Positions 19,881 through 50,459 are shown, counted from the first letter of the stretch. The stretch: 64,000 nucleotides of DNA from Myxococcota bacterium (GCA_041611735.1 JBFIML010000008.1:32001-96000), one strand, 5' to 3'. Notes: generated from the sequence alone by a model not told the origin. Numbers and translations: made by a program.

Positions 19881-20474
19881 ACGGCCTACCGCCGCAAGGA
19901 CGCCCTCCACCAGCGCGCCAAGCGCGAGGGCTACCGGTCGCGAGCCGCCTACAAGCTGCTCGAACTCCAGCGCGCCCACGGGCTGCTACGCCCCGGCCAG
20001 CGGGTGGTGGACCTCGGCTGCTGGCCCGGGGGCTGGCTGCAGGTGGCGGCGCGGAGGGTGGGGCCGGCGGGGCGGGTGGTCGGGGTGGACGTGGCGGAGG
20101 TGGAGCCCCTCGAGGGGTTTGCGAACGTGTTCCTGATCCAGGCGGACCTCACCGAGCCAGCGGTGGTCGAGGGAATTCTCGAGCTCCTCGGGGGCCCTGC
20201 GGACGTGTTCCTGTGCGATGCCGCTCCCAAGCTGACGGGCGTGCGGGCCACCGACCGCGCCCGGGAGGAGGCGCTGCTGCAGGCGGTGGAGGCCCTGGTG
20301 CCGCGCCTGCTGCGGCCTCGGGGGGACCTCGTACTCAAGCTGCTGGACGCTCCGGAGGCCGAGGCGGTGGCGTCGCGGCTGCGGCCCCGCTTCGCCCACG
20401 CCCGCGTCACGCGCCTGGCCGCCACCCGTCGCGGAAGCAGCGAGCGGTATCTGATAGGCCGGGGACGTTCTTGA
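19881..20474 (+). CDS. rlmE: 23S rRNA Um2552 methyltransferase RlmE/FtsJ (start uncertain; ACG at 19881)
   Basis: In frame with ORF 20004..20474: AYRRKDALHQRAKREGYRSRAAYKL..VVDLGCWPGGW..DAAPKLTG..SSERY. Confidence 0.85.
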   Translation, partial: TAYRRKDALHQRAKREGYRSRAAYKLLELQRAHGLLRPGQRVVDLGCWPGGWLQVAARRVGPAGRVVGVDVAEVEPLEGFANVFLIQADLTEPAVVEGILELLGGPADVFLCDAAPKLTGVRATDRAREEALLQAVEALVPRLLRPRGDLVLKLLDAPEAEAVASRLRPRFAHARVTRLAATRRGSSERYLIGRGRS

Positions 20475-20536
20475 CGAAGCGACTTTCTCCCTCGGCGACC
20501 CGGCCGGGAAGAAGCGGATCAGTCAAGAACCTCCCC
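20461..20536. repeat. Inverted-repeat (MITE/REPIN-like) element, copy 1
   Basis: GGGGACGTTCTTGACGAAGCGACTTT..GAAGCGGATCAGTCAAGAACCTCCCC; contains the stops of rlmE and rimO. Confidence 0.8.
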
Positions 20537-21886
20537 CTCCAGGTCGACGCCGCGGACGGCGGTGAGGCGGGCCCGGCGCAGGTCGCCCGGCCGCGCCGAG
20601 CCGCGCACCCGCACGTGCCCGTCGATCTCCGGCGCCTGGGAGGGAAGCCGGCCGCGAGCGATCCCGTTGCCGCCGGCATCGATCAGGAGCGTCTGCTCGC
20701 TTCCCACCAGGACCTCGAGCTTCTGGCGCAGGATCTCGCCCTGGACCGCCAGCAGCCGGCGATGACGCTCCCGGGCCACCCGGACCGGGACCTTGCCCGG
20801 GAGCTGGAAGGCCGCCGTCCCCTCCTCGTCCGAGTAGCGGAAGAAGCCGACGCGGTCGAAGCGCAGCTCGCGGACGAAGTCGAGCAGCTCCTCGAAGTCC
20901 GACGCCGTCTCGCCCGGAAAGCCCACGATGAAGGTGGTGCGGAGCGTGACGTCGGGAATGGCCGCGCGCAGCCGCTCCACCAGCCGCCGCTGGCGGTGCT
21001 GGGTGGTGCCCCGTCGCATGGCGCGTAGCACGCGGTCGCTCGCGTGCTGCAGGGGCACGTCCACGTAGGGAAGGACCCGCCGCGCTCCCGCCACGGCCTC
21101 GATCAGCTCGTCACCGACGGCGCTCGGGTATAGGTAGAGCAGGCGGATCCAGTCGAGGCCCTCCACGGCGTCGAGGGCCCGCACCAGGTCGACGAGCCTG
21201 GGGCGCGCCGTCCCGGTCGCCGGCAGGTCCTTGCCCCACGAGGTCGAATCCTGGGCCACCAGGTTGAGCTCCCGCACGCCGAGGGCGGCCAGCTGCCGGG
21301 CCTCCGCCAGGACCGACTCGAGCGTGCGGCTCTGGAAGCGCCCGCGGATGCCCGGGATCGCGCAGAAGGCGCAGATCCGGTCGCAGCCCTCGGCGATCTT
21401 CAGGTAGGCGCTGTGAGCGGGCCCGGTCAGGATGCGCGGGTCGTGCTCGTCGTAAAGGTGGGTCCGGCCGGCCTCCACGTACACGCCACGCCCCCGACCC
21501 GCCAGGGCGTCGTCCAGGATGCGCGGCAGGTTCGGGAACTCCCCGGTGCCGACGAAGGCGTCCACCTCCGGGAGCTCCCGGGCCAGCTCGGCGCCGTAGC
21601 GTTGGGGCAGACAGCCCGTCACCACCAGCGCCCGCAGGCTCCCGCGCTCGCGCAGCTCCGCCACCTCGAGGATGGCCTGGATCGATTCCTCGCGAGCCGC
21701 CGCGATGAACGAGCAGGTGTTGACCACGGCCACGTCGGCGTCCTCGAGGCGCTCCGCCAGGACGTAGCCGGCCACGGCCAGGCGCCCGAGCATGACCTCG
21801 GTGTCGAGCTGGTTCTTCGGGCAGCCGAGCGAGCGGAAGTGAACCCGCGCCCCGGCGGCGAGGGCCACGGCGGACGACGACGCCAT
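20519..21886 (-). CDS. rimO: Ribosomal protein S12 methylthiotransferase
   Basis: [39 protein letters not shown] domain. Confidence 0.95.
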
Positions 21887-21966
21887 GGCGACGCAGGGTA
21901 GCAGGGGGTCGCCGGGGCCCGGGGCCTCGCATACCCTCGCCACCCGCTCCACCGGGAGATGACGCC

Positions 21967-22461
21967 GTGTCCGAACGCCCGTTCCGTGTGCTCGGAGTGC
22001 AGCAGATCGCCGTCGGCGCCCGGGACAAGGCCGCCCTGCGCCGGCTGTGGATCGACCTGCTCGGCCTCACGCCGGAGGGCTCGTTCCGGAGCGAGACGGA
22101 GAACGTGGACGAGGACATCGCCGTGGCGGGCGCCGGGGCCCTGCGCGTCGAGGTGGATCTGATGCAGCCCATCGACCCGGAGAAGCGACCGCGCGTACAC
22201 GAGCCACCGCTCAACCACGTGGGGCTGTGGGTGGACGACCTGCCGGCGGCCGTCGCGTGGCTGGGGGAGCGGGGGGTCCGCTTCACCCCGGGCGGCATCC
22301 GCAAGGGCGCGGCGGGCCACCCGGTCTGCTTCATCCATCCCAAGGGGAGCGAGTCCGAGCCCGTGGGGGGCGAGGGGGTGCTGATCGAGCTGGTGCAGGC
22401 GCCCCCCGAGGTGATCGCCGCGGTCCGGGCGGCGTCCGGCCCGGGGCCCGCGAGGCCCTGA
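21967..22461 (+). CDS. VOC/glyoxalase family protein (methylmalonyl-CoA epimerase-like)
   Basis: [39 protein letters not shown]. Confidence 0.8.
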
Positions 22462-22492
22462 ACGGCCTCGAATCGGAATGCTTTCCACTCCT

Positions 22493-22519
22493 GCGGGGCA
22501 GGGGCTTCCCCTGCCCCGC
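22493..22519. terminator. GC-rich hairpin after the VOC gene (possible terminator)
   Basis: GCGGGGCAGGG-GCTTC-CCCTGCCCCGC; no U-tract. Confidence 0.45.
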
Positions 22520-22643
22520 GCGCCCGCGCTAGCATGGAAACCTGAAACCCTCGGGGCAGGTTTACGTCCAATCTGCAAAGCCGTGGAGTGCCCCGACCCT
22601 GGCTCCCCCCCCACACGGGGCCGGACTGGAGGAGACATCCGTG

Positions 22644-23954
22644 ATGCATGCGCGCCCGCGCCGAATTCTCGCCTGGATCGCCGCCGCCGTGCTCGCCGCA
22701 CCGGCGGCCGTCGCTCAGGAGGACACCGGAGTCGCCCCGCCCTTCAAGGAAGGCGACATCATCACCTTCGACAAGCTCGAGAAGATCCGGCCCTATCTGC
22801 CGCCGGAGTTCTGGGCGAACCGGGACTTCTTCTTCTACGAGGGCATGAAGATGGAGATCGGGCCCTCGAACCGGGACTACTCCCCGGCTGCGGAGTTCAA
22901 GGAGGCCACGGCCCAGTTCAAGGGCCAATCCAAGATCGGCCCCGACCAGAGTCTCCAGGGCTACACCGCCGGCACGCCCTTCCCCATGGAGAGCATCGAC
23001 TGCAAGGGCGACCCGCAGGCCGGCACCAAGATCATGTGGAACCACGACTACCAGTGGACCGGCGACGGCGCCGACGCCCGCTACTACTACTCCTACTGGG
23101 ACCGTGGCGAGGAGCTGCCGCTCTACTACCAGGGCACCTCGAAGACCATCCAGCTCGCCAACCGGGTCGAGAAGGAGTACCTGGAGAAGAGCGAGGGCGA
23201 CATGTTCCGCGGCGAGAAGCGGAAGTTCGCCTTCGGCATCGAGGTGGAGGCACCCTTCGACGCGCGCGGCATCATGCTGCTCACGTATCGCTACAAGTCC
23301 TCGGACATGGCGCGCGCCCAGGCCAAGAACGACGACACCTGGGTCTACGTGCCCACCCTGCGCCGCGTGCGCCGCATCTCGACGGCGCAGCGCACCGACG
23401 CGGTGGCCGGCACGGACTTCACGTTCGACGACCTGCGCAGCTTCTCCGGCATCGTGCCCCAGTACGAGTGGAGCTGTCTCGGCGAGATGGACATCATGGC
23501 CCCCATGAACACCAAGGTGAAGGCCTATCCGGAGAGCAAGGACCACAACTTTGGTCCCTACGGTCTGTCGTATGCCGATGATCGCTGGGAGGTGCGGCGC
23601 GTGGTGAAGGTGCGCATGAAGCCCAAGAACCAGGACCACCCCTATCACCACAAGGACATCTACATCGACAAGGAAGCGATCACGGCGCTCTACTCCTTCG
23701 CCTACGACCAGAAGGAAGAGCTCTGGAAGATCATCTGGCACAACCACCGCTGGAGCGGCGATGGCACCTGGTACAAGGGCTGGGACGGCATCTCGGATCC
23801 GCGCGACCTGCGCATCATCTCCGACATGATCGTGAACGTGCAGACCGGCACCGGCAACCGGATCGAGTTCTGGGACAGCCACGGCAGCCCGTTCGCGAGC
23901 AAGGGCAAGGTGCGGCGCTACATCGACGTGGGCCGCCTCACCAAGGGCCGCTAG
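22644..23954 (+). CDS. DUF1329 family exported protein (LolA-like fold)
   Basis: Signal peptide; GTPFP, KIMWN, DDTWVYVPTLRRVRRIS, WEVRRV; RBS GGAGGAG. Confidence 0.85.
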   Translation: MHARPRRILAWIAAAVLAAPAAVAQEDTGVAPPFKEGDIITFDKLEKIRPYLPPEFWANRDFFFYEGMKMEIGPSNRDYSPAAEFKEATAQFKGQSKIGPDQSLQGYTAGTPFPMESIDCKGDPQAGTKIMWNHDYQWTGDGADARYYYSYWDRGEELPLYYQGTSKTIQLANRVEKEYLEKSEGDMFRGEKRKFAFGIEVEAPFDARGIMLLTYRYKSSDMARAQAKNDDTWVYVPTLRRVRRISTAQRTDAVAGTDFTFDDLRSFSGIVPQYEWSCLGEMDIMAPMNTKVKAYPESKDHNFGPYGLSYADDRWEVRRVVKVRMKPKNQDHPYHHKDIYIDKEAITALYSFAYDQKEELWKIIWHNHRWSGDGTWYKGWDGISDPRDLRIISDMIVNVQTGTGNRIEFWDSHGSPFASKGKVRRYIDVGRLTKGR

Positions 23955-23975
23955 CCCCGACGGGCACGCGACACG

Positions 23976-24006
23976 CGGGGCCGGGACGCCAGGCGTCCCG
24001 GCCCCG
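23976..24006 (+). terminator. Hairpin / probable terminator after DUF1329 gene
   Basis: CGGGGCCGGGACGCC-A-GGCGTCCCGGCCCCG followed by TCTGCGTT. Confidence 0.6.
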
Positions 24007-24082
24007 TCTGCGTTCCGGGAGGGGTTGCGTCGGGCATCCGGGGCTGCTGTGCTCGGGGGTCCGAACCCGCCCAGGAGGGCGC

Positions 24083-25237
24083 ATGCCCGACACGGTCGAG
24101 CCCTATCGGATCCAGGTCCCCGACGCCGTTCTGGAAGACCTGAGCCAGCGCCTGGCGCGCACGCGCTTCCCCGACCAGCTCGAGGGCGCTGGCTGGGACT
24201 ACGGCACCGAGCTCGGCTATCTGCGCGAGCTGATCCAGTACTGGCGCGAGAAGTTCGACTGGCGGGCCCGCGAGGCCCGGCTCAACCGCCTTCCTCACTT
24301 CCGTACGGCGATCGACGGGCGCAAGCTCCACTTCATCCACGCCCGCTCGCCCCGGCCGGATGCCGTGCCGCTGCTCATGCTCCACGGCTGGCCAGGATCC
24401 GTCTGCGTGTTCGACAAGGTGATCGAGCCCCTGGCCGACCCGGCAGCGCACGGCGGGCGCGCCGAGCCGGCCTTCCACGTGGTGGTGCCCTCGCTGCCCG
24501 GCTATGGCTTCTCGGATCCGCCGCGGGAGCGGGGCTTCGACGTGCGGAGCGTGGCGGAGACCCTGGCGAAGCTCATGGCCCGCCTGGGCTACGACCGCTA
24601 CGGGGTCCAGGGCGGCGACTGGGGCGCCATGATCGCCTCCCACCTGGGTCTCGTGGATGCGGAGCACCTGCGCGGTATCCACCTGAACTTCGTGGTCGCC
24701 CTGCCGCCCCCCGGCGGCGATCCCCTGCAAGGCCTCACCGATGCCGAGAAGGCCGCCTTCGCGGACATGCTGCGCTTCCAGCAGGAGGAGACCGGCTACT
24801 CGAGCATCCAGGGCACCAAGCCCCAGAGCCTCGGCTACGGGCTCAACGACTCGCCGGCCGGCCTGGCGGCGTGGATCGTGGAGAAGTTCCGGACCTGGAG
24901 CGACTGCGAGGGCGACGTGGAGCGCCGCTTCAGCAAGGACGAGCTGCTCACCAACATCACGATCTACTGGGTGACCCAGAGCATCACCGCCTCCACGCGG
25001 CTCTACTACGAGACCATGAAGGCCGGGCGCTGGGGGCCGGTTCCCGAGCGCGTGGAGGTGCCGACCGGCTGCGCGATCTTCCCGCGGGAGATCCTGCGCC
25101 CGCCGCGGCCCTGGGCCGAGCGCCTCTACAACGTGGTCCACTGGACCGAGATGCCGTCCGGCGGGCACTTCGCCGCCCTGGAGGAGCCCGAGCGCCTGGT
25201 GGCGGACGTGCGCGCCTTTGCCCGGAAGCTCCCCTGA
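24083..25237 (+). CDS. Epoxide hydrolase (EHN domain plus alpha/beta hydrolase)
   Basis: HGWPGS, PSLPGYGFS, QGGDWG, GGHFAALEEP. Confidence 0.93.
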   Translation: MPDTVEPYRIQVPDAVLEDLSQRLARTRFPDQLEGAGWDYGTELGYLRELIQYWREKFDWRAREARLNRLPHFRTAIDGRKLHFIHARSPRPDAVPLLMLHGWPGSVCVFDKVIEPLADPAAHGGRAEPAFHVVVPSLPGYGFSDPPRERGFDVRSVAETLAKLMARLGYDRYGVQGGDWGAMIASHLGLVDAEHLRGIHLNFVVALPPPGGDPLQGLTDAEKAAFADMLRFQQEETGYSSIQGTKPQSLGYGLNDSPAGLAAWIVEKFRTWSDCEGDVERRFSKDELLTNITIYWVTQSITASTRLYYETMKAGRWGPVPERVEVPTGCAIFPREILRPPRPWAERLYNVVHWTEMPSGGHFAALEEPERLVADVRAFARKLP

Positions 25238-25288
25238 GCGCTTCGATGGAGATCGCTGGCCCCGGCGCCCGGTCGCTATGCTCCGGAC

Positions 25289-25981
25289 ATGGGAAGGGGC
25301 GGTGCCATTCGTCGCTGGGCCGTGCGGATCGCGATCGCACTCACGATCGTCGGGCTCGCCGTCTTCGCCAACGCCTCGCAGCTCCTCCAGCGGGCACTGG
25401 AGACCCTGGAAGGCCTCGGGCCGGCGGCGCCCGCCCTGTTCCTGGCGCTCTACGTCGCCACCTGCGTCCTCTTCGTGCCGTCCTTCGTGTTCACCTTTGC
25501 GGCGGGCGCTCTCTTCGGTCTCCCGCTCGGCGTGGCGCTGAGCCTGCTCGGCACGGGGCTCGGGTCCGTGGCGGCCTTCGCCGTCGGACGCCACCTGGCT
25601 CGCGACGCGGTGACGCGCGCCTTCGCGGAGAATCGCCAGTTCCAGGCCCTGGCCGGCGCGGTGGCGCGCCGCGGCTGGAAGATCGTGGCCCTGGCGCGCC
25701 TCTCGCCGGTCTTCCCGTTCCTGGTCGGAAACTACGCCTTCGGCGTGACGGGCATCCCGGCGCGCCACTACTTCGTGGCCTCGGTGCTGGGGACGATCCC
25801 CTCCGCCACCGTCTACGTCTACGTGGGCACCCTGGCCGGCGACCTGGCGGCGGCCTCGGAGCGGGGCCGCACGCCCCTCGAATGGGCCCTGTTCCTGGCC
25901 GGGCTCGCTGCCACCGTGATCCTCACCCTCTACGTACGGCGCGTGGCGCGGGTCGCCCTGGAGCGGGAAGTTCCCTCCTGA
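25289..25981 (+). CDS. TVP38/TMEM64 (DedA superfamily) membrane protein
   Basis: Several TM helices; RLSPVFPF..NYAFG. Confidence 0.88.
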   Translation: MGRGGAIRRWAVRIAIALTIVGLAVFANASQLLQRALETLEGLGPAAPALFLALYVATCVLFVPSFVFTFAAGALFGLPLGVALSLLGTGLGSVAAFAVGRHLARDAVTRAFAENRQFQALAGAVARRGWKIVALARLSPVFPFLVGNYAFGVTGIPARHYFVASVLGTIPSATVYVYVGTLAGDLAAASERGRTPLEWALFLAGLAATVILTLYVRRVARVALEREVPS

Positions 25982-25998
25982 CTCCCGCCCCGGCGGCG

Positions 25999-26028
25999 TG
26001 GACAACGAGATTGAAACATGTTCTAATC
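25999..26028 (+). promoter_or_regulatory. Sigma70-like promoter overlapped by KstR-type operator 1
   Basis: TGGACA-17 bp-TCTAAT; operator TGAAACATGTTCTA (26012-26025) matches TnnAACnnGTTnnA. Confidence 0.8.
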
Positions 26029-26036
26029 GTGGCCCC

Positions 26037-26699
26037 ATGGGCGCGCGCACCCGTTCCGAGGCGGCGGCGGGCGGAGCCGGGTTGCCGGAGCTGCCCGGGG
26101 CACGCCTCGCCGCCAACCAGCTGCGGCGCATGCGGCGCGTGGTCGACGCGGCGGTGCGGCTGGCCGAGAAGGGCGGCTTCGAAGGGGTGCGCCTGCGCGA
26201 CGTGGCGGAGCACTCGGGCGTCGCCCTCGGCACGCTCTACAAGTACTTCCACAGCAAGGAGGACATCCTCCTCTTCGCGCTGAACGAGGAGCTCGAGCGC
26301 GTCGAGCAGGCCCTGGCCGAGCGCCCGGCCTCGGGCCGCACTCCCCTCGCGCGGGTCACCGACTTCTTCCGCCGCGCCACCGAGGCCTTCCTCGGCAATC
26401 CGCAGCTCGGCCGCGCCGTGCTGCGTGCCATGGCGGGCGGCGACGCGGAGACGGCGGTGCGCATCGCCGGGGCCCAGCTGCGGGTGGCACGCCTGGTGGT
26501 GGCGGCCCTGCACGGGGAGACGCCGGACCTCGCGGCCGCTCGGGAGGCCGAGCTCGGCGACGAGCGCGAGCGCCGCATTGCCCTCACGCTCCAGTACGTG
26601 TGGTTCGCGGCGCTGGTCGGCTGGTCCGTGGGCATCCACCCCGAGTCGGCCGTGATCCACCACGTGCGCACGGCGGCGGAGCTGATCCTGAAACGGTGA
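26037..26699 (+). CDS. kstR: KstR-like TetR regulator
   Basis: KGGFEGVRLRDVAEHSGVALGTLYKYFHSK; C-domain GRTPLARV..NPQL..VWFAALVGW resembles mycobacterial KstR; adjacent operator. Confidence 0.75.
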   Translation: MGARTRSEAAAGGAGLPELPGARLAANQLRRMRRVVDAAVRLAEKGGFEGVRLRDVAEHSGVALGTLYKYFHSKEDILLFALNEELERVEQALAERPASGRTPLARVTDFFRRATEAFLGNPQLGRAVLRAMAGGDAETAVRIAGAQLRVARLVVAALHGETPDLAAAREAELGDERERRIALTLQYVWFAALVGWSVGIHPESAVIHHVRTAAELILKR

Positions 26700-26703
26700 C
26701 CCG

Positions 26704-27165
26704 ATGAAGCTGCCGATCCGAGACGTCGACGGCTTCCTGTCCGCGCCCCACGTGCTCGAGTACCGCTACCGGCGCTCGGTGGGGCCGCTGCTGGGCCGCT
26801 TCTTCGCGGGCCTGCGCGACCGGCAGCTGCTCGGCGTGCGGACTCCCGCCGGCCGCGTGCTGGTGCCGCCAACGGAGTACGATCCGGAGACCGGCGACGC
26901 CCTGGAGGAGCTCGTGCCCGTCGGGCCGGGCGGGGTCGTGACGACGTGGGCCTGGGTGGCCCGCCCGCGCCCCAAGCAGCCACTCCCCCATCCCTTCGCC
27001 TGGGCCCTGGTGCGGCCCGACGGGGCGGACACCGCCCTGCTGCACGCCGTGGACGCCGGTGGCCAGGCCCGCATGCACACGGGAATGCGCGTGCGGCCGC
27101 GCTGGCGCGAGGAGCGGGGGGGAGGCATCGGCGACCTGGTCTGCTTCGAGCCGGAGGACGCATGA
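26704..27165 (+). CDS. DUF35/OB-fold acyl-CoA-binding protein (like N-half of Rv3521)
   Basis: YRRSVGPLLGRF..VPPTEYDPETG..GADTALLHAV. Confidence 0.8.
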   Translation: MKLPIRDVDGFLSAPHVLEYRYRRSVGPLLGRFFAGLRDRQLLGVRTPAGRVLVPPTEYDPETGDALEELVPVGPGGVVTTWAWVARPRPKQPLPHPFAWALVRPDGADTALLHAVDAGGQARMHTGMRVRPRWREERGGGIGDLVCFEPEDA

Positions 27166-27650
27166 GCGAGCCCGTAAAGCGCCTCGAGATCCCGGTTCGG
27201 CTGGAGTACGACTACAGCGCCGGCCGGGCCACGTCCCGCTTCCTGCGCGGCATCGCCGAGGGGCGCATCTTGGGCCAGCGTTGCCCCAGCTGCCGCAAGG
27301 TCTACGTACCTGCGCGCGGGGCCTGCCCCTGCTGCACCGTCCCCACCGAAGAGGAGGTGCAGGTCTCGGACCGCGGCACCGTCACCACCTTCAGCATCGT
27401 GCGCGTCCCCTCGGAGAACCTCTCCGTCCCGCTTCCCTTCGCCTGCGCCCACGTCCTCCTGGACGGCGCGGACATTCCCTTCTATGGCGTGATCCAGGAG
27501 TGTCCGCTCGAGCAGGTGCGGATGGGCATGCGCGTCCAGGCGGTCTGGAAGCCCAGCGAGGAGCTCGGGCCCACCCTCGAGAGCATCCGTCACTTCCGGC
27601 CCGTCGACGAGCCGGACGCGCCCTTCGAGTCCTACCGGGAGCATCTGTGA
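27162..27650 (+). CDS. Zn-ribbon DUF35/OB-fold protein (like C-half of Rv3521)
   Basis: CPSCRKVYVPARGACPCC, LLDGADIPF, GMRVQAVW. Confidence 0.85.
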   Translation: MSEPVKRLEIPVRLEYDYSAGRATSRFLRGIAEGRILGQRCPSCRKVYVPARGACPCCTVPTEEEVQVSDRGTVTTFSIVRVPSENLSVPLPFACAHVLLDGADIPFYGVIQECPLEQVRMGMRVQAVWKPSEELGPTLESIRHFRPVDEPDAPFESYREHL

Positions 27651-28708
27651 TGCGCGAGGTCGCGGTCGTCGCCTTCGCCCAGGCGCCGAGTGTGCGTCGC
27701 GAGACGCGACGCAACGAGGTGGAGATCCTCCAGCCGGTGGTGCAGGAGGTGCTCGAGCGTGCGGAGCTCGCCCGCGACCAGATCGACTTCACCTGCTCGG
27801 GCAGCAGCGACTACCTGCAGGGCCAGCCCTTCTCCTTCGTGGGCGCCCTCGACGCGGTGGGCGCCTGGCCGCCCATCGTCGAGTCGCACGTGGAGATGGA
27901 CGGCGCCTGGGCGCTGTACGAGGCGTGGGTCAAGCTCCAGACCGGCGAGGCGGACACGGCCCTCGTCTACGCCTTCGGCAAGTCCTCCGCCGGCGACGTG
28001 GCCGAGGTGCTGGCGCTCCAGCTGGACCCCTACTGCGTGGCTCCGCTGTGGCCCGACGCGGTGAGCCTCGCCGCGCTCCAGGCCCGCGCCTGGCTCGAGC
28101 GCAGCGGGCGCAGCGAGCGCGACCTGGCAGCGGTCGCCGCCCGCAGCCGGCGCGACGCCCTCCGCAACCCGAACGCCCAGGTGGCCGGGGACTTCGAGGT
28201 GGAGAAGCTGCTGGCGGAGCCGTACCTGGTCGCCCCGCTCCGCAAGCACGACTGCCCGCCCATTTCGGACGGCGCGGCGGCCGTGGTGCTGGCGGCCGAC
28301 GAGCGGGCGCGTCGCCTGCACCGCCGCCCCGCCTGGATCCGCGGCATCGACCACCGCATCGATCCCCAGGCGCTCGGCTTGCGCGACCTCACCCGTTCCG
28401 CGTCGGCGGCGTTCGCCGCCGGGAAGGCCGGCGTGGCCGACCGCCCCGTGGAAGTGGCGGAGCTGCATGCCCCCTTCACCCATCAGGAGTGGATCCTGCG
28501 CGAGGCCCTGGGCCTCGGCGAGGACGTGCGGGTGAACCCTTCCGGCGGCGCGTTGGCGGCGAACCCGATCATGGTGGCGGGTCTGCTCCGCATGGGCGAG
28601 GCGGCGCAGCGGCTGCTCGACGGGGAGGCGACCCGGGCCGTGGCCCATGCCACCTCGGGGCCTTGCCTGCAGCAGAACCTGGTCTGCGTGCTGGAGGCGA
28701 GCTCGTGA
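27650..28708 (+). CDS. ltp4: Thiolase-like steroid aldolase Ltp4
   Basis: CSGSSDYL..ESHVEMDGAWALYEAW..HATSGPCLQQNLV. Confidence 0.85.
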   Translation: MREVAVVAFAQAPSVRRETRRNEVEILQPVVQEVLERAELARDQIDFTCSGSSDYLQGQPFSFVGALDAVGAWPPIVESHVEMDGAWALYEAWVKLQTGEADTALVYAFGKSSAGDVAEVLALQLDPYCVAPLWPDAVSLAALQARAWLERSGRSERDLAAVAARSRRDALRNPNAQVAGDFEVEKLLAEPYLVAPLRKHDCPPISDGAAAVVLAADERARRLHRRPAWIRGIDHRIDPQALGLRDLTRSASAAFAAGKAGVADRPVEVAELHAPFTHQEWILREALGLGEDVRVNPSGGALAANPIMVAGLLRMGEAAQRLLDGEATRAVAHATSGPCLQQNLVCVLEASS

Positions 28709-29862
28709 GCCGTCCCTGCGCCGTCATCGGCATCGGGCAGACCCACCACGCCGCCCAGCGCACGGACCTGTCCCTGCCGGGACTGCTGCGCGAGGCCGCC
28801 CTGCGCGCCCTGGCGGACGCCGAGCTCTCCTGGGGCGACATGGACGCGGTCGTGATCGGCAAGGCCCCGGACATGTTCGAGGGCGTGATGATGCCCGAGC
28901 TGATTCTCGCCGAGGCCCTGGGCGCCGCGGGCAAGCCCGCCCTCCGCGTGCACACGGCGGGGAGCGTCGGAGGGTCCACGGCGATCGTGGCCGCCAGCCT
29001 GATCCAGGCGGGCGTGCACGAGCGCGTCCTCACGGTGGCCTTCGAGAAGCAGAGCGAGAGCAACGCCATGTGGGCGCTCACGATCCGGACACCGCTGCAG
29101 CCGGCCCTGGTGGCCGGGGCGGGCGGCTACTTCTCGCCCCTGATCCGCGCCTACATGCGCCGCTCCGGGGCTCCCGAGGACACGGGGATCCGGGTGGCCC
29201 TGAAGGACCGCCTCAACGCCATGAAGAACCCCTACGCGCACCTGCGCGACCCGGACATCTGCTACCAGACCGTGGCCAGCTCCCCGATGCTGTGGGATCC
29301 GATCCGCTTCCACGAGACCTGCCCGTCGTCGGACGGAGCCTGCGCCCTGGTGCTGGCCAGCCCCGACGCCGCCCGCCGCACCCCGCGGCCGCCTGCCTGG
29401 GTGCGGGCCACGGCCATGCGCAGCGAGCCCACCATGTTCGCGGGCCGCGACCAGGTGAACCCGCGCGCCGGGCGCGATTGCGCGGCGGATCTCTACCGCA
29501 AGGCGGGCATCCGCGACCCGCGGCGCGAGATCGACGTGGCGGAGATCTACGTGCCCTTCAGCTGGTTCGAGCCCATGTGGCTCGAGAACCTGGGCCTCGC
29601 GCCGGAGAACCAGGGCTGGCGGCCGGTGCTGGACGGCGTCACCGCCCTGGAGGGCGAGCTGCCCGTGAACCCCTCCGGCGGCGTCCTCGCCAGCAACCCG
29701 ATCGGGGCGTCGGGCATGCTGCGCTTCGCGGAGGCCGCGCTCCAGGTGCGCGGACAGGCCGGCGAGCACCAGGTGGACGGCGCCCGACTGGCGCTCGGCC
29801 ATGCGTACGGCGGCGGCTCCCAGTTCTTCGCCACGTGGATCGTCGCCGCGGAGCCCTCCTAG
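28705..29862 (+). CDS. ltp3: Thiolase-like steroid aldolase Ltp3
   Basis: GKAPDMFEGVMMPEL..RVHTAGSVGGSTA..GHAYGGGSQFF. Confidence 0.85.
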   Translation: MSRPCAVIGIGQTHHAAQRTDLSLPGLLREAALRALADAELSWGDMDAVVIGKAPDMFEGVMMPELILAEALGAAGKPALRVHTAGSVGGSTAIVAASLIQAGVHERVLTVAFEKQSESNAMWALTIRTPLQPALVAGAGGYFSPLIRAYMRRSGAPEDTGIRVALKDRLNAMKNPYAHLRDPDICYQTVASSPMLWDPIRFHETCPSSDGACALVLASPDAARRTPRPPAWVRATAMRSEPTMFAGRDQVNPRAGRDCAADLYRKAGIRDPRREIDVAEIYVPFSWFEPMWLENLGLAPENQGWRPVLDGVTALEGELPVNPSGGVLASNPIGASGMLRFAEAALQVRGQAGEHQVDGARLALGHAYGGGSQFFATWIVAAEPS

Positions 29863-29871
29863 GACGCGCCC

Positions 29872-31461: not shown

Positions 31462-31515
31462 GACGGATGGCCGAGATGCAAGCCGCCCCGGGCGGCGGCC
31501 GGCGAGCGTAGCCCC

Positions 31516-33060: not shown

Positions 33061-33063
33061 CCG

Positions 33064-34203: not shown

Positions 34204-34268
34204 CGGTCCCGCCCCGTTGAGCCGGCCACCGCGCCGTGCTGCAATGGGGCCCGGGAGGGAGGCGCGGG

Positions 34269-35297: not shown

Positions 35298-35301
35298 GTC
35301 G

Positions 35302-37005: not shown

Positions 37006-37006
37006 G

Positions 37007-37564: not shown

Positions 37565-37585
37565 GGAATCCTCCCGAGCCACGAC

Positions 37586-38374: not shown

Positions 38375-38901
38375 AGCGGCCCGACGAGGCCCGCCAGCTC
38401 CTCCCGGCTCAGCTGCCGGAAGGAGAGCCGATAGCCCTCGTAGACCGCGATGGCGTAGAAGACGAGGTCGCCGGGCCGGAAGCTGGCCGCCAGCAGGCGC
38501 CCAGCGCTGGCGGCGTCCAGGCGGTCCAGCACCTCGCGCAGGGGGAGGCCTTCCTGCGCTGCCACGATCGCGCACACGGCCAGCAGGTTGCCGAGCACGC
38601 AGCCGCCGAGGGCCAGGATCCCGCCGGCCACGCCGAACTGGCGGTCCACGCCCTTGCCGAGCGCGCGGACCGTCCAGCCCACCAGCAGGCCGATCGCCAC
38701 GGCCACGATGCCGAGCTGGTAGCCCGTGGCCGCCGCGACGGCCGCCCAGCCCGCCGCGCCCACGGCCGCCGCCACGGCGCCGCCCACCACGCCGAGCACC
38801 AGGTTCTGCTCGGAGCGCAGCAGCTGGAGCGCGTACTCGAGCCGCACCGGGTCGATGGGCGGCGTCTGCGGTGCCTCGGGCTCTCGGGGGGCCTCGCCCA
38901 C
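38371..38901 (-). CDS. Hypothetical membrane protein
   Basis: Several hydrophobic segments; EQNLVLG..DLVFYAIAVYEGYRLSFR. Confidence 0.7.
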   Translation of the reverse strand: MGEAPREPEAPQTPPIDPVRLEYALQLLRSEQNLVLGVVGGAVAAAVGAAGWAAVAAATGYQLGIVAVAIGLLVGWTVRALGKGVDRQFGVAGGILALGGCVLGNLLAVCAIVAAQEGLPLREVLDRLDAASAGRLLAASFRPGDLVFYAIAVYEGYRLSFRQLSREELAGLVGPL

Positions 38902-38923
38902 GCGGCCTAGTCTACGCAAGGGT

Positions 38924-40111: not shown

Positions 40112-40143
40112 GGCTGCCTCCCGTTGAGCCCTCGGGCCAGAAA

Positions 40144-40157
40144 TGATACACGTTTCA
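40144..40157. promoter_or_regulatory. KstR-type operator 2 (1 mismatch) between divergent ACAD genes
   Basis: TGATACACGTTTCA (reverse complement TGAAACGTGTATCA) in an AT-rich patch. Confidence 0.65.
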
Positions 40158-40208
40158 AAAACGAGGCCGCCCGCGGCGCCGGGCGGCGGCTCGATGCGGA
40201 GCCGCGGC

Positions 40209-41384
40209 ATGTATCTGGACCTCACTCCCGAGCAGCAGGCCCTGCGCGACCAGCTGCGCGCCTACTTCGCCACGCTCATGACTCCGGACCTCGAGGAGGA
40301 GATCCGGGGCAGCGAGGGAGGCGGACCGCTCTACCGAGAGGTCTTGCGCCGCATGGGCGAGGATGGCTGGCTCGGCATCGGGTGGCCCAAGGAGTACGGC
40401 GGGCAGGGGCGCTCACACATCGAGCAGCTCATCTTCGCCGACGAGGTGCAGCGGGCCGGCTTCCCCCTCCCCTTCCTGACCCTGCATACCGTCGGTCCGA
40501 CGCTCATGCAGTTCGGGACGGAGGCGCAGCGGCGCGAGCTGCTGCCCCGCATCCTGCGCGGCCAGTGCCATTTCGCCATCGGCTACTCGGAGCCCGGAGC
40601 GGGCACCGACCTGGCGTCGCTCCAGACCCGGGCCGTACGCGACGGCGACGAGTACGTGGTCAACGGCCAGAAGGTCTTCACGAGCCTCGCGGACTTCGCC
40701 GACTACATCTGGCTGGCAGTTCGCACCGATCCCCGGGCGCCCAAGCACCGTGGCATCTCGATCCTCATGGTGGACACCCAGCTCCCCGGCTTCAAGCTGA
40801 CCCCGACCTGGACCATGGGCGACGTGCGCACCAACACCACCTGGTACGAGGACGTGCGGGTGCCGGTGCGCATGCTGGTGGGGCGCGAGAACGAGGGCTG
40901 GGGCCTGATCGTGAACCAGCTCAACTACGAGCGCATCTCGCTCACGCCCTACGGTCCGCTGGCGCGGCTGCTGGAGGAGACGCGCGCCTGGGCGCACAAG
41001 ACCGAGCTCGCGGGAGGAGAGCGGGTCATCGACCGGCCCTGGGTGCGCGAGCGGCTGGCGCGTGTCCACGCGGGACTCGAAGCGCTCAAGCTCATGCACT
41101 GGAAGCAGGCCTGGGCCATGACGCGCGGGATGCTCCAGGCGGCGGACGCGTCGGCCCTCAAGGTGTACGCCAGCGAGTTCTACGTGGAGGCCTATCGCCA
41201 TCTGATGGAAGTCTTCGGGCCCGGCGCGGCGCTCCAGCGCGGGTCGGCCGGAGCGGTGCTGCGCGGGCGGCTCGAGCGCATGTACCGGGCCACCTTGATC
41301 CTCACCTTCGGGGGCGGCACCAACGAGGTGCAGCGCGACATCATCGCCATGGCCGGCCTCGGCCTGCCAAGGGGACGTTCTTGA
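40209..41384 (+). CDS. fadE26: Steroid side-chain acyl-CoA dehydrogenase, FadE26/ChsE4-like
   Basis: AYFATLMTP, IGYSEPGAGTDLA, TSLADFADY, LTFGGGTNEVQRD. Confidence 0.75.
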   Translation: MYLDLTPEQQALRDQLRAYFATLMTPDLEEEIRGSEGGGPLYREVLRRMGEDGWLGIGWPKEYGGQGRSHIEQLIFADEVQRAGFPLPFLTLHTVGPTLMQFGTEAQRRELLPRILRGQCHFAIGYSEPGAGTDLASLQTRAVRDGDEYVVNGQKVFTSLADFADYIWLAVRTDPRAPKHRGISILMVDTQLPGFKLTPTWTMGDVRTNTTWYEDVRVPVRMLVGRENEGWGLIVNQLNYERISLTPYGPLARLLEETRAWAHKTELAGGERVIDRPWVRERLARVHAGLEALKLMHWKQAWAMTRGMLQAADASALKVYASEFYVEAYRHLMEVFGPGAALQRGSAGAVLRGRLERMYRATLILTFGGGTNEVQRDIIAMAGLGLPRGRS

Positions 41385-41459
41385 CGAATTGACTTCTTCC
41401 GGCGGCGTGCCATCGGGCCCGGCGGCTTGTAAAGCAGTCAATGAGTCAGGAACTTCCCC
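41371..41459. repeat. Inverted-repeat element, copy 2
   Basis: GGGGACGTTCTTGACGAATTGACTTC..GCAGTCAATGAGTCAGGAACTTCCCC. Confidence 0.8.
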
Positions 41460-41470
41460 GGAGCGAGAGC

Positions 41471-42610
41471 ATGGACTTCGGTTTCACCGAGGAGCAGCAG
41501 GCGCTTCGCGAGCTGGCGCGCAAGATCCTTGCGGATCGCGTCACGCCGGATCGTTTGCGGGAGATCGAGCGAAGCGACGAGGGCATCGACCGCGAGCTGT
41601 GGGCCGAGCTGGCCAAGGCGAACCTGCTCGGGAGCTGCCTGCCCGAGTCGGTGGACGGGAGCGGGCTCGGCTTCTTCGAGCTGTGTCTCCTGCTCCAGGA
41701 AGCGGGCCGGACGGTCGCGCCGCTCCCCCTGTGGGCGACGCTCGTCCTCGGCGCCCTGCCGCTCGCCGAGTTCGGGAGCGCCGCCCAGCGCGAGCGCTGG
41801 CTCCCGGCGGTGGTTCGCGGCGAGGCCTTCCTCACCGCAGCGCTCTTCGAGCCGGACTCCCTGGACCCGACCCGCCCCACGACCCGCGCCGAACGTGTCG
41901 ACGGCGGCTGGCGCCTCTCGGGCGAGAAGCTGTGTGTTCCAGCCGCGCCGGTCGCGGCCCGGGTACTCGTTCCGGCCCGCTTCGCCTCGGGCGGCGTCGG
42001 GATGTTCCTGCTCGACCCACATGCCGATGGCGTCGCGCTCGAGCGCCAGATCGCCACGAATCACGAGGTGCTGGGACGCCTGGTGCTCAGCCGCGCGTCG
42101 GTCGCCGACGCGGACCGGCTCGGCGGCGAACAGGAGGGCCAGGCCGCAATCCGCTGGCTGGCGGACCGGGCGGTGGTGGCTCTCTGCGCCCTCCAGCTCG
42201 GGGTGGTCGAGCGCGCCCTCGAGATCACGGCCCGCTACGTGGCCGAGCGCCGCCAGTTCGACCGCCCCATCGGCAGCTTCCAGGCCGTGCACCAACGCGC
42301 CGGGGATGCCTACATCGACGTGGAGCTGATCCGCCTCACCACCTGGCAGGCGGCCTGGCGTCTGGACCAGGGCATGCCGTCGACGGGAGAGATCGCCGTG
42401 GCCAAGTTCTTCGCTTCGGAGGCCGGCCATCGGATCGTGTACGCAGCCCAGCATCTCCACGGCGGGATTGGCGTCGACGTGGACTACCCGATCCACCGCT
42501 ACTACCTGTGGGCGCGCGAGATCGAGCTGACGCTCGGCTCCGGAGCCCGCCAGCTCGAGCGGCTCGGGGAGGAGCTGGCGCGCAGCCCCGCGACGGCCGC
42601 GATCGGGTAG
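41471..42610 (+). CDS. fadE27: Acyl-CoA dehydrogenase partner subunit, FadE27/ChsE5-like
   Basis: [37 protein letters not shown]; follows fadE26-like gene. Confidence 0.72.
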   Translation: MDFGFTEEQQALRELARKILADRVTPDRLREIERSDEGIDRELWAELAKANLLGSCLPESVDGSGLGFFELCLLLQEAGRTVAPLPLWATLVLGALPLAEFGSAAQRERWLPAVVRGEAFLTAALFEPDSLDPTRPTTRAERVDGGWRLSGEKLCVPAAPVAARVLVPARFASGGVGMFLLDPHADGVALERQIATNHEVLGRLVLSRASVADADRLGGEQEGQAAIRWLADRAVVALCALQLGVVERALEITARYVAERRQFDRPIGSFQAVHQRAGDAYIDVELIRLTTWQAAWRLDQGMPSTGEIAVAKFFASEAGHRIVYAAQHLHGGIGVDVDYPIHRYYLWAREIELTLGSGARQLERLGEELARSPATAAIG

Positions 42611-42742
42611 TCGGCAAGCGGAGCGCGCAGCGAGGCGCAGCCGAGCGAAGTTCATCGGCAAGCGAAGCGCGCAGCGAGGCGCAGCCGAGCGAAGTTCATC
42701 GGCAAGCGAAGCGCGCAGCGAGGCGCAGCCGAGCGAAGTCTA
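42611..42742. repeat. Direct tandem repeat, 3 x 44 bp
   Basis: TCGGCAAGCG(G/A)AGCGCGCAGCGAGGCGCAGCCGAGCGAAGT(TC/CT)A starting at 42611, 42655 and 42699. Confidence 0.92.
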
Positions 42743-43216
42743 TCCAAGCGGTGGCACGAAGAGGGTGATCGTCTCGTACACCACCGCAGGGCGATCGTTC
42801 CCCACCACGTGGATGTGGTTCTCGAACACGATCTGCGTGCCCTTCGGCTTCTTCTCCACGGCCTTCAAGCGCCCGCGCATGTGGATCTTGCTCCCGGCCA
42901 GGACCGGCCCCGTGAAGCGCAGCTTGTCGGAGCCGTAGTTCACCACGTTCCCGAAGCCAGTCAGGGCAAAGGTCGGCTTGGGGGTCAGGCTCGGCAGCAG
43001 CGACAGGGTGAGGAAGCCGTGGGCCACGGGCCCCCCGAATGGGCTCTGCTTCCTGGCGCGTTCCACGTCCACGTGGATCCACTGGTGATCCCCGGTCAGA
43101 TCCGCGAACTGCTCGATCATCTCCTGGGTCACCGTCATCTCGGGTCCCCAGGGTCCGAACTCCTCGCTCACCTGCTTGCGGATGCTCTCGACGTCATCGA
43201 AGCGGATCGGGTCCAT
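42740..43216 (-). CDS. MaoC-family dehydratase
   Basis: FADLTGDHQWIHVD..AHGFLTLSL..NYGSDKLRF. Confidence 0.9.
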   Translation of the reverse strand: MDPIRFDDVESIRKQVSEEFGPWGPEMTVTQEMIEQFADLTGDHQWIHVDVERARKQSPFGGPVAHGFLTLSLLPSLTPKPTFALTGFGNVVNYGSDKLRFTGPVLAGSKIHMRGRLKAVEKKPKGTQIVFENHIHVVGNDRPAVVYETITLFVPPLG

Positions 43217-43239
43217 GCCACACTCCTCCTGGCCGACAG

Positions 43240-44151
43240 TCATTGGGGCGGGACGGTGAAGCCGTCCTTCACCGGCTCGAGCTTCTCGAAGTGGGGACCG
43301 AGCTGATCGTCGAGGGCCTCCACGGTCCAGCGCTCGGCACTCTCGAAGCGGGTGTGGAGGGTGGGTCTCCCCACCACGGTCACGTTGCGTCCCCAGACCA
43401 CGAAGACCTGGCCCGAGATGCGATCCGCCTTCGGAGAGGCCAGATAGACCACGAGTGGCGTCACGTTCTCGGGCGCGAAGTGGTCGAAGCCCTGCTCGGG
43501 CTTCTGGAAGATCGCTGCCACCGGGCCCGCCAGGGTCATGCGCGTGCGGGCCCGGGGCATCACCACGTTGGCGGTGACCCCGTACTTCTGGCACAGCTGG
43601 GCCGCGCCCATGGTGAGGGCGACGATTCCCGCCTTGGCGGCGGCGTAGTTGGGCTGGCCGGGGTTTCCGAACAGGAAGGCTTCGGAGGAGGTGCTGATCA
43701 GACGGCCGTAGAGGGGACCCCCTCGGGCCTTGGACTGCTCGCGCCACCAGGCGGTGGCGTGCCGCATGGTGCAGAAGTGACCTTTCAGGTGGACGCGCAC
43801 CACCGCGTCGAAATCCTCCTCGCTCATGTTGAAGAGGGTGGCGTCACGCAGGAAGCCGGCGTTGTTGACGAGGATGTCGAGGTCGCCGAACTCGGAGAGG
43901 GCGGTCTCGATCAGGCGCTTGGCATCGTTCCAATCGGCGACGTCGCCGAAGTGCGGGACCGCCTCGCCGCCCGCGGCGCGGATCTCGTCCACCACCGCGC
44001 GAGCCGCGCTCTCGTCGCGCCCGGTGCCGTCGGCCCGGGTGCCGAGATCGTTCACCACCAGCCGCGCCCCGTGCCGAGCCAGGTCGAGGGCCTCGAGCCG
44101 GCCGAGCCCATGGGCTGCTCCGGTGACGATCGCAACCTTGCCGTCGAGCAT
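43240..44151 (-). CDS. SDR oxidoreductase, Hsd4A/ChsB1-like
   Basis: TGAAHGLG, NNAG, YGRLISTSSEA, NYAAAKAG. Confidence 0.85.
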   Translation of the reverse strand: MLDGKVAIVTGAAHGLGRLEALDLARHGARLVVNDLGTRADGTGRDESAARAVVDEIRAAGGEAVPHFGDVADWNDAKRLIETALSEFGDLDILVNNAGFLRDATLFNMSEEDFDAVVRVHLKGHFCTMRHATAWWREQSKARGGPLYGRLISTSSEAFLFGNPGQPNYAAAKAGIVALTMGAAQLCQKYGVTANVVMPRARTRMTLAGPVAAIFQKPEQGFDHFAPENVTPLVVYLASPKADRISGQVFVVWGRNVTVVGRPTLHTRFESAERWTVEALDDQLGPHFEKLEPVKDGFTVPPQ

Positions 44152-44161
44152 GCCGTCTCCC

Positions 44162-48161
<4,000 letters not shown>

Positions 48162-48164
48162 CGA

Positions 48165-49142
48165 CTAGCCCGCCGGCCGGAAGACGGGGAGCTTCAGCTC
48201 CTCGTCCACGTTCTCGATGCTCGCCTGGAGCCGCATGCCAATCGCCACCTTCTCGGGATCGCAGCCCACGACGTTGGCCACCATCCGCGTGCCTTCCTCG
48301 AGCTCGATGAGCCCCACCACCAGGGGATACTCGTAGCCCGGAAAGCGAGGGTGATGGAGGACCGTGTAGCTGTGGAGCGTACCCCGCCCCCGGGCGGGCA
48401 CCGCGCCCCACTCGAGGGACTGGCATTTCCCGCACATGGGGCGCGGCGGATGGCGCAGCGTGCCGCAGGCGCTACAGCGCTGGATCAGCAGCTCGCCCCG
48501 GTCGATTCCCTCCCACCACCAGGCGTTGTCGTGGCCCCGGGGCGCACGCATGCGGCGGGGCTGGCTGGCTGTGGCTGGCTGCGGGGAGGCCTGCGGCTCC
48601 TGGGCGGGCTTGAACTTCAGCACGCGGAAGGTCATCCAGCCGACCTCTTGCCCCTGCTGGTCTCGGAAGACCGTCCGCGTGTCGATGAAATATCCGATTC
48701 CAAGGGCGGTCGCCTTCTGCTCGGAGATGGACTCGATCGTGGTGGTGGCGGTCACGCGGTCACCGGGTCGCAGGTAGCGCCGGTACTCCTGCTCGCAGTC
48801 CGTGGCCACGACCGAGGGGTAGCCGTGCGCGCTGAGCAACTGGTGCAGCTCCTGCTGCTTGTCGCGGGGACCGTCGCCCACCTGCGCCATCTCGACTCCG
48901 CCCAGGATCCAGGCCTGCAGCATGGTGGGCGGCGCCACGAGCCCATGGTGCACGGAAGCGACCGCCGCCTGCGGGTCCGTGTACACCGGGTTGCGGTCGC
49001 CGAGGGCCTCGCACCAGTGGCGGATCATGGCCTCGTTCACGGGGACCGGGCCTACGCCGGGCGGACCGGTCTCGATGCCCACGTAGGCCCGCAACCGCTT
49101 CTCGAAGGCCTGCTGGTCGCGCTTCTGCAGACTCACGTTCAC
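48165..49142 (-). CDS. chsH2: ChsH2-like MaoC plus DUF35/OB-fold protein (alternative GTG start at 49136)
   Basis: VNEAMIRHWCEA..APPTMLQAW..VVATDCEQEY; CSACG..HPPRPMCGKC. Confidence 0.85.
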   Translation of the reverse strand: MNVSLQKRDQQAFEKRLRAYVGIETGPPGVGPVPVNEAMIRHWCEALGDRNPVYTDPQAAVASVHHGLVAPPTMLQAWILGGVEMAQVGDGPRDKQQELHQLLSAHGYPSVVATDCEQEYRRYLRPGDRVTATTTIESISEQKATALGIGYFIDTRTVFRDQQGQEVGWMTFRVLKFKPAQEPQASPQPATASQPRRMRAPRGHDNAWWWEGIDRGELLIQRCSACGTLRHPPRPMCGKCQSLEWGAVPARGRGTLHSYTVLHHPRFPGYEYPLVVGLIELEEGTRMVANVVGCDPEKVAIGMRLQASIENVDEELKLPVFRPAG

Positions 49143-49145
49143 TCC

Positions 49146-49233
49146 GGGGACGTTCTTGGCCGATCGACTCTTGCCGAGAACGTCAAGCTTGCCGATGCGA
49201 TCGGGGAAAAGTCAATCAGTCAAGAACGTCCCC
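49146..49233. repeat. Inverted-repeat element, copy 4
   Basis: GGGGACGTTCTTGGCCGATCGACTC..AAAAGTCAATCAGTCAAGAACGTCCCC. Confidence 0.8.
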
Positions 49234-50407: not shown

Positions 50408-50459
50408 GGTGCTCCGCTGCGATCGGGCGCGGCACGGCCCTGGCGGATGTGCTCCCGCC

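Follow-up and report, generated by a model that had tools for sequence, protein, structure and literature searches.

The 64,000-nucleotide stretch analysed here (the window, G000:C8:32001-96000) comes from a bacterium of an uncultured order, probably Myxococcota. Its genome, G000, is available as a 4.09-Mb assembly of 118 contigs with 72.3% G+C and a completeness of 95%. The window contains four short elements, termed REPIN-like doublets here after the hairpin-forming doublets (REPINs) of repetitive extragenic palindromic (REP) sequences. In each, a pair of inverted arms, both about 28 nt long, encloses an unrelated centre, and together the four elements supply the stop codons of five genes. 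The four elements with their coordinates, inverted arms and unrelated spacers had been proposed in a sequence-only reading, and all of these particulars held: a profile of the arm family recovered all eight window arms. Amino acid tails are written below up to the stop codon.

Doublet 1 (20461..20536, no strand assigned) occupies the convergent junction between an RlmE-like gene on the plus strand and the RimO gene on the minus strand. The RlmE-like tail ...GRGRS runs into a TGA of the left arm (20472-20474), and the RimO tail ...GEVLD is closed by a TGA of the right arm (20519-20521). The other three doublets are intra-operon copies. In doublet 2 (41371..41459, plus strand), the left arm ends the acyl-CoA dehydrogenase gene 40143-41384 with RGRS-TGA, the native ending being HYKS-stop, and the right arm abuts the ggagcgagagcATG of the next dehydrogenase gene (start 41471). 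In doublet 3 (45353..45443, minus strand), arm 45416-45443 ends the Ltp2-like gene 45430-46599 with (L)GRC-TGA, the native ending being GQL/GKLD-stop, and arm 45353-45380 lies 2 nt from the GGAGG and ATG of the thiolase gene 44162-45337. Doublet 4 (49146..49233, minus strand) closes the acyl-CoA dehydrogenase gene 49220-50521 with RGRS-TGA in arm 49206-49233; its arm 49146-49173 abuts the GGAG and GTG start of the next gene (48165-about 49136). Translation verified the five tails that had been read from the sequence (YLIGRGRS, GLPRGRS, PRGRGRS, MILGRC and DLEGEVLD). Among the gene products, RimO, the Ltp2-like lipid-transfer protein and the steroid 3-ketoacyl-CoA thiolase scored above the NCBIfam cut-offs, and the RlmE-like protein and the acyl-CoA dehydrogenases scored below equivalog cut-offs. 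Three of the four copies lie inside one steroid-degradation gene cluster.

A GGAG or GGAGG follows the distal arm at a distance of 0-2 nt in all three operon copies, just as had been claimed for their ribosome binding sites (RBS). Five strands of the window elements, folded as RNA, reached -41 to -49 kcal/mol (z -4.0 to -7.3 relative to shuffles), and together with the RBS positions this bears out the proposed hairpin between stop and RBS. A repeat search placed two of the four elements among the 25 longest inverted repeats of the window, namely element 4 (49144-49175/49204-49235; 32 nt, 84%) and element 1 (20461-20491/20506-20536; 31 nt, 74%); the other two were not listed. Across the whole window there was no Rfam 15 match at gathering score. 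None of the four hairpins is followed by a T-run, and of the two sites returned by an intrinsic terminator scan between 40000 and 51000 (shuffled mean 2.5) neither is at an element, so that the usual description of an intrinsic (rho-independent) terminator, a G+C-rich hairpin plus a T-run, does not apply to the window elements. Contigs from the runs of two other studies (X5, X6) bridge elements 3 and 4 unchanged. Contig X7, about 90% alike, bridges element 2 with small indels in the element centre; since the element is bridged in this relative, these copies are older than that divergence.

The arm family of G000 and its placement at stop codons

In the whole of G000, the 15-base arm core occurs in 14 exact copies and in 93 copies at two mismatches or fewer, and a longer arm pattern at the same tolerance gave 63 matches compared with none for the reversed control. 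An nhmmer arm profile was built from 66 aligned arms. Of 40 15-mer pairs, three chance pairs in coding DNA (C1 152473, C8 29988, C28 44028) were left out, as were one nested pair (C49 8698) and three short palindromes below 60 bp. At E<10, the profile returned 103 arm matches in G000, which form 42 inverted doublets and leave 19 arms unpaired. Doublets measure 32-123 bp, most of them 70-104, and the arms are spread next to unrelated genes on 30-odd contigs. In line with the sequence-only reading, which saw none at its four copies, a target-site duplication is absent from 31 of 36 doublets; the remainder have 2-3 nt, which equals the shuffled control. With about 100 arms, no target-site duplication and arm-free junctions in relatives, the suggestion of a non-autonomous family resembling REPINs or transposable elements of the miniature inverted-repeat kind (MITEs) has stood up.

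In the consensus arm, GGGGACGTTCTTGACTGATTGACTTCTC, a tip of 10 nt (GGGGACGTTC) is conserved and precedes a direct pair of TTGAC words at a distance of 8 nt; the most invariant positions of the arm are the GAC triplets. TGA is found at positions 12-14, 16-18 and 20-22, i.e. once per frame. Mean arm identity to this consensus is 82%. The two arms of a doublet agree at 21.4 of 28 positions and arms of different doublets at 20.3, and none of 5000 shuffles reached the observed value. Deviations from the consensus are shared by both arms in 55 cases and confined to one arm in 219. Maintenance of the hairpin by compensatory change was considered as well and finds little favour in these counts. Stops at all three canonical places are kept in 12 of 93 arms, and positions unused as a stop still hold one in 35-54% of the arms. 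Because unused stops are so patchily kept, the three-frame stop characterises the consensus and erodes wherever a stop goes unused. The smallest copies are palindromes of 30-32 nt with two arm cores 0-2 nt apart (G000:C9:52582-52613 and G000:C44:6170-6199); at the former both convergent genes end in ...RGRS, and at the latter just one gene is recorded with this ending.

To place the arms relative to genes, GC periodicity (GC3 of at least 0.82, GC1>GC2) in the outer 180 nt flanking an arm was used to call the coding frame there, and this frame was followed to its first stop. An incoming gene was present at 59 of the 103 arms, and in 47 of these 59 the stop lies inside the arm. The count of five genes is thus correct for the window and far too low for the genome, in which 47 genes stop inside an arm. 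In-arm stop codons end at arm position 14 (17 cases), 18 (20), 22 (9) or 25 (1); 45 of them are TGA, one is TAA and one TAG. The tails encoded by the repeat are of the RGRS, GDVLD or GTFLTD type and comprise 4-7 residues. The remaining 12 incoming genes have a stop of their own that ends 0-7 nt ahead of the arm, and none ends farther away. Random tip positions give 1.4% (276 of 20000).

Sorted by context, 13 of the 42 doublets are convergent, 20 co-directional and 4 divergent, one has a single incoming gene with the opposite side unclear, and another 4 have no clear context. The claim that the elements are tolerated only at gene ends therefore applies to most copies, but not to the four doublets between divergent genes nor to the four more without a clear incoming gene. 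High-confidence gene pairs in G000 comprise 335 convergent, 1213 co-directional and 319 divergent ones, so that 13 of 37 classified doublets compare with 335 of 1867 pairs in the convergent share. Element-free convergent pairs have a median stop-to-stop spacer of 9 nt (quartiles -4 to 39; a quarter overlap), which leaves no room for conventional terminators.

Orthologous junctions and transposase genes in relatives

Five genomes of the same family (G005, G006, G009, G010 and G011) were compared with G000, each junction only where the orthologue was recovered. Synteny with these genomes is good, and protein identity at the ends compared is 72-85%. At the junctions compared, no arm of the G000 family was present in the 47-50 nt downstream of the orthologue stops, and the spacers measured are 0-34 nt long. 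Orthologous sites without these arms, and original C-termini, both of which the sequence-only reading had asked for, were found. The dehydrogenase encoded at 40143-41384 ends in ...GLGLPHYK[STDE] in 11 relatives, followed by 0-20 nt to the next ATG or GTG, and in ...GLGLPRGRS in G000, where the far side of element 2 runs directly into ggagcgagagcATG. The Ltp2-like protein ends in ...MILGQL or ...GKLD in relatives and in ...MILGRC in G000, and the second dehydrogenase in ...LPRARR or ...PRLQRAR and ...LPRGRGRS, respectively. Outside the window, the same comparison gave ...RLGLG and ...RLGLGDVPG (C3 37312), ...VYGT and ...VYGDVVD (C49 21330), and ...LPKDR, with a TGA overlapping the next ATG, and ...LPREPRARS (C3 130720). 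That C-termini had been rewritten was a correct prediction, as the native endings HYKS, GQL and LGLG attest.

At the rlmE-rimO junction, both stops share a CTAG in G006 and are separated by a 5-nt spacer in G010. In G005 (G005:C35) this junction holds a different, nearly perfect 90-nt palindrome with CCGTCAAGAAAGGGGCCGGGTTGGATTCGTCAACTTTTCCC arms; elsewhere in that genome, a CCGTCAAGAAAGGGGCCGGGTTGGATTCGTCAACTTTTCCC arm also comes after the stop of the gene orthologous to C41 39702. Relative to the native stop, the arm tip of the G000 elements falls between roughly 13 nt ahead of it and 7 nt past it. The changes from HYKS to RGRS and from GQL to GRC had suggested an equal-length replacement in which the arm TGA always falls on the native stop. 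This idea was dropped, as native and G000 tails differ in length by -4, -4, -3, -3/-4 and +7 (native minus G000) besides 0. At two mismatches or fewer, the G000 arm family is absent from 14 of 16 same-family genomes. The G000 elements are lineage-specific insertions into very short spacers.

The tip is more widespread than the arm. Of 401 genomes sampled across the phylum, 17 have an exact tip pair, GGGGACGTTC...GAACGTCCCC with 8-120 nt in between; every one of them belongs to the order or class of G000, with none from outside that class. After the common 10-nt tip the inner arm is genome-specific and usually holds two direct 5-6-mers about 8 nt apart, for instance TTGCC..TTGCC, TTTCCG..TTTCCG or CTTGAC..CTGAAC. 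Matches to the tyrosine transposase domain Y1_Tnp were obtained in 31 of 71 genomes of the same order, and at 9 of 18 loci fetched from them inverted tips, at a distance of 0.9-1.17 kb from each other, enclose the Y1 gene. For G194, G151, G003 and G005, the arms around the Y1 gene are of the type that is dispersed in that very genome. Two of the proteins were scanned (G005 and G194; 280-289 aa). Both exceed the Pfam cut-off for Y1_Tnp and carry a C-terminal helix-turn-helix, and in the NCBIfam model 'REP-associated tyrosine transposase' (RAYT) they reach 66-68 bits where the cut-off is 80. The flanked transposases of loci L116, L120, L123, L128, L131 and L209 have in common a C-terminal helix-turn-helix of about 60-100 residues, without counterpart in classical short RAYTs. 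The genome-specific direct 5-6-mers of the arms would be natural partners for this domain.

A scan of metagenome contigs with the G000 arm pattern yielded two stretches, L209 and L210. L209 encodes a 330-aa relative of these transposases between two arms of exactly the G000 type (GGGGACGTTCTTGACTTATTGACTT / ...TTGATTT); with 46% G+C it stems from an organism different from G000. On L210, a cut-off N-terminal piece of a RAYT-like gene (1366-2089) lies beside two doublets of the G000 arm type, whose centres are alike, in contrast to the unrelated centres in G000. The supposition that a Y1 transposase of the RAYT type acts as the mover is therefore supported outside G000 (9 of 18 loci, and L209); in the G000 assembly itself no such gene was found.

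Abutment to stop codons recurs in other genomes, with outer edges of elements 0-7 nt from stops in G194, G015 and G014. In G194 the arms close all three frames, and five of eight incoming genes stop inside the arm. In G151 the arms are devoid of stops, and the element there includes an outer stem (GCAAGA or GTGAGACAA); of 14 incoming genes, 13 have their stop at 0-7 nt from this stem, which places it 5-16 nt ahead of the tip. Each G151 arm is a small hairpin in which this outer word forms base pairs with an inner one and the loop holds the conserved tip; in two cases the TGA within GTGAGACAA serves as the stop of the neighbouring gene. G015 and G014 carry a compact 47-nt variant, GGGGACGTTCCTG-AAGTCAAC-TAAGTCAAC-..CAGGAACGTCCCC, flanked by GTTGACTT / AAGTCAAC words that recur as partial tandem copies outside the element. 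This variant adjoins stops and gives tails such as TWGRS.

Origin of the elements and rival readings

We consider it highly probable that the window elements belong to a dispersed non-autonomous family of REPINs or terminal inverted repeat (TIR) dimers, whose arms are recognised as its ends by a RAYT/TIRYT-type Y1 (HUH) transposase with a C-terminal helix-turn-helix, and that this family, orphaned here, ends genes in a compact genome. Its observed basis is the family with its copy numbers, the arm-free orthologous junctions, the native tails and, outside G000, the link between gene and arms. The arms would be mobilised in trans, with a Y1 transposase working on hairpins of single-stranded DNA; transposition by IS200/IS605-type enzymes leaves no target duplication. 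This transposase may since have been lost, or may lie in an assembly gap. As the assembly has no transposase gene and the arms are decayed, the population looks orphaned, and most likely it no longer moves. Copies would have been wedged into tiny intergenic spacers, on or beside stop codons, for in a genome as compact as this one an intergenic element necessarily sits on gene ends. A gene deprived of its stop, be it upon insertion or through small deletions afterwards, would go unharmed: the first 22 nt of the consensus arm offer a TGA in every frame, and a gene with a displaced or deleted stop therefore ends in the arm. Once transcribed, the hairpin might influence termination, mRNA stability or translation of the neighbouring genes. 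The scale of the phenomenon is unusual, the abutment to stops is unusually tight and the lineage is little studied.

Several observations weigh against this reading. The linkage of gene and arm that defines such systems is missing in G000. The RAYT- or IS200-like gene that was expected between the same arms did not turn up there: no Y1 (PF01797) match was obtained, tblastn with the proteins of six relatives reached E 0.004 at best and only in the helix-turn-helix part, and hmmsearch with a profile of these proteins gave a weak best match (E 0.0031). At 95% completeness and in 118 contigs, true loss and an assembly gap cannot be told apart. Among relatives, a flanking tip pair is missing at 9 of the 18 Y1 loci fetched, the Y1 gene of G011 occurs without an exact tip pair, and G171 and G344 have tip pairs without a Y1 match. 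The consensus arm alone folds at just -3.8 kcal/mol; it is not a palindrome of its own and lacks a GTAG head. The centres of different copies bear no relation to one another, apart from a local duplicate on contig 3 at a distance of 434 bp, and they are unrelated also in G194, where the arms are near-perfect, so simple copying of arm, centre and arm does not account for the copies. The gene calls derive from GC3 periodicity and not from a trained gene finder. Finally, the 12 retained stops are all within 7 nt of the arm, although just 11-25% of the positions in spacers are this near to a stop. Abutment is thus closer than an even spread of insertions over the spacers would give, which leaves some targeting, trimming or selection unexplained. 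Deletion-biased trimming, targeting and selection for a hairpin at the gene end are each possible explanations.

Such tight placement is what would be expected if the elements were kept as gene-end punctuation, in which a stop and a strong hairpin insulate neighbouring genes and selection sets position and retention, a view compatible with a transposon origin. At convergent junctions the hairpin would terminate transcripts from both directions or stabilise their 3' ends, and within operons it would serve mRNA processing or translational coupling. The recurrence of the 0-7 nt abutment in G151, whose arms contain no stops, and in G194, G015 and G014 favours this view, as do the over-representation of convergent junctions, the near lack of terminator space between element-free convergent genes, the unrelated palindrome at the rlmE-rimO junction of G005, the retention of element 2 in the metagenomic relative and the strength of the hairpins. 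It does not sit well with the lack of T-runs and of predicted terminators at the window elements, with arms that decay freely and mostly singly, with the patchy retention of unused stops or with same-family genomes that have these junctions without such arms. On balance we regard punctuation as a possible but distinctly less likely account. Rather improbable, in our estimate, is the broader view that placement is not passive and that elements of this superfamily are aimed at, or selectively kept at, translation stop sites. The rlmE-rimO junction may then have been colonised independently by different palindromes. Conceivably, a single-strand-specific Y1 transposase integrates where the DNA turns single-stranded, just past the point at which ribosomes leave the transcript; alternatively, the module of hairpin and stop could have become a gene-end signal of ultra-compact genomes whose convergent genes share or abut stops.

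Two further readings dispense with a Y1 transposase. The arms, each with its two direct TTGAC words and invariant GAC triplets, might be operator-like sites of a cellular DNA-binding protein, e.g. a regulator reading TTGAC words, conserved in place and immobile; the presence of three window copies in one steroid-degradation cluster would suit such a role. Around 100 arms beside unrelated genes on 30-odd contigs do not, nor do the absence of arms from orthologous junctions and of the family from most same-family genomes, the transposase gene flanked by arms in relatives and the location of most copies at 3' ends instead of promoter regions. This reading is largely refuted and hardly credible any more. 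Nor do we give more than a very slight chance to classical MITEs, i.e. deletion derivatives of an insertion sequence (IS) with a DDE transposase and the same terminal inverted repeats. Short size and dispersal of the copies agree with such an origin, and inverted arms of about 28 nt starting with GGGG resemble several IS and Tn3-type ends. Against it stand the missing target-site duplications and the lack of a parent element in G000, where no arm pair is more than 123 bp apart (pairs were sought up to 260 bp). Moreover, the only gene found between such arms, in relatives and on L209, is a Y1 transposase, in the context of a survey that included no systematic search for DDE families.

Relation to known repeat systems

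REPIN-RAYT systems, which are said to have been described by Nunvar et al. in 2010 and by Bertels and Rainey in 2011, share with the G000 elements the inverted doublets of a short repeat that form one long hairpin, their non-autonomy, lineage-specific variants and many dispersed, mostly extragenic copies (103 arms; 63 matches vs 0 in the control). A single cognate Y1 gene flanked by repeats, seen here in relatives and on L209, and the decay of repeats upon loss of the transposase are further points of likeness. They differ in that the G000 repeat unit is not a palindrome by itself and has no GTAG head, that the centres differ wholly in length and sequence between copies, and that the transposase relatives have a C-terminal helix-turn-helix and stay below the RAYT cut-off (66-68 vs 80 bits). 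The G000 arm is therefore not a classical REP, a palindromic unit tagged with GTAG or CGTC. The reverse complement of the tip does contain CGTC, but inside the paired stem of the doublet; G151 arms do have an outer stem around the tip.

Correia/NEMIS, ERIC and RPE-type MITEs are likewise short inverted repeats in transcribed DNA that form RNA hairpins and sometimes alter the ends of open reading frames (ORFs). Such MITEs have target-site duplications (TA in Correia), a conserved internal sequence and either DDE-type transposition or none known. In contrast, the G000 elements lack such duplications, have unrelated centres and are linked to a Y1 transposase. E. coli REPs near stop codons reportedly lower translation, an effect attributed to work of Liang, Rudd and Deutscher in 2015. 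An identity as integron attC sites was weighed and set aside: the genes beside the elements have housekeeping roles and are spread over many contigs in both orientations, and comparison by eye with the consensus of the attC core sites gave no match. Literature on Myxococcus repeats and on REPs with tmRNA turned up nothing useful.

The closest description is that of TIRtrons by Di Nocera, De Gregorio & Rocco (2013, PMC3733652). In that paper, TIRtrons are RAYT-like TIRYT genes flanked by long inverted repeats, the encoded transposases are longer than classical RAYTs, and the TIRs also form moderately abundant dispersed families, often as dimers. The same architecture, a Y1 gene between inverted repeats that also disperse, is seen in relatives of G000. 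Some TIRs carry the motif GGGGWSAS, which the tip GGGGACGT fits at positions 1-6 (GGGGAC) and not at positions 7-8 (GT). G000 differs by having the repeats without the gene and by its host lineage. The paper also reports that GTAG REP termini overlap gene 3' ends and supply TAG stops, and that REPs lie mainly between unidirectional and convergent ORFs. Both the element class and the supply of stops by repeat termini have thus already been described, and the overlap with gene 3' ends and the mostly unidirectional or convergent contexts are features that G000 shares. In G000, however, the stop is a TGA within the arm that may fall in each of the three frames and follows 4-7 residues encoded by the repeat; this concerns 47 genes in one 4.1-Mb genome, and an incoming stop is never more than 7 nt outside the arm (59 of 59). 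A preprint by Bertels and Rainey (10.1101/2021.07.10.451892) states that REPIN populations decay after RAYT loss, and the diverged arms of G000 fit this pattern. G000 thereby offers a natural case of a repeat population without its transposase for studies of decay.

For annotation, dozens of proteins in G000 and in relatives such as G194 carry 4-7 C-terminal residues that are encoded by repeats and should not be taken for conserved motifs. The abutment to stops, should it reflect targeting or function, would bear on what REPIN-type elements do for their hosts. Our data extend tyrosine-transposase-associated hairpin repeats into an uncultured order as a large class with the tip GGGGACGTYC. In a species collection, a profile of six of the transposases found relatives in 563 of 615 candidate stretches, with record titles naming mostly Desulfobacterota and also Myxococcota, Planctomycetota, Nitrospirota and Acidobacteriota. 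Among the 80 loci kept from this collection, 39 carry the tip and 14 have both flanking tips.

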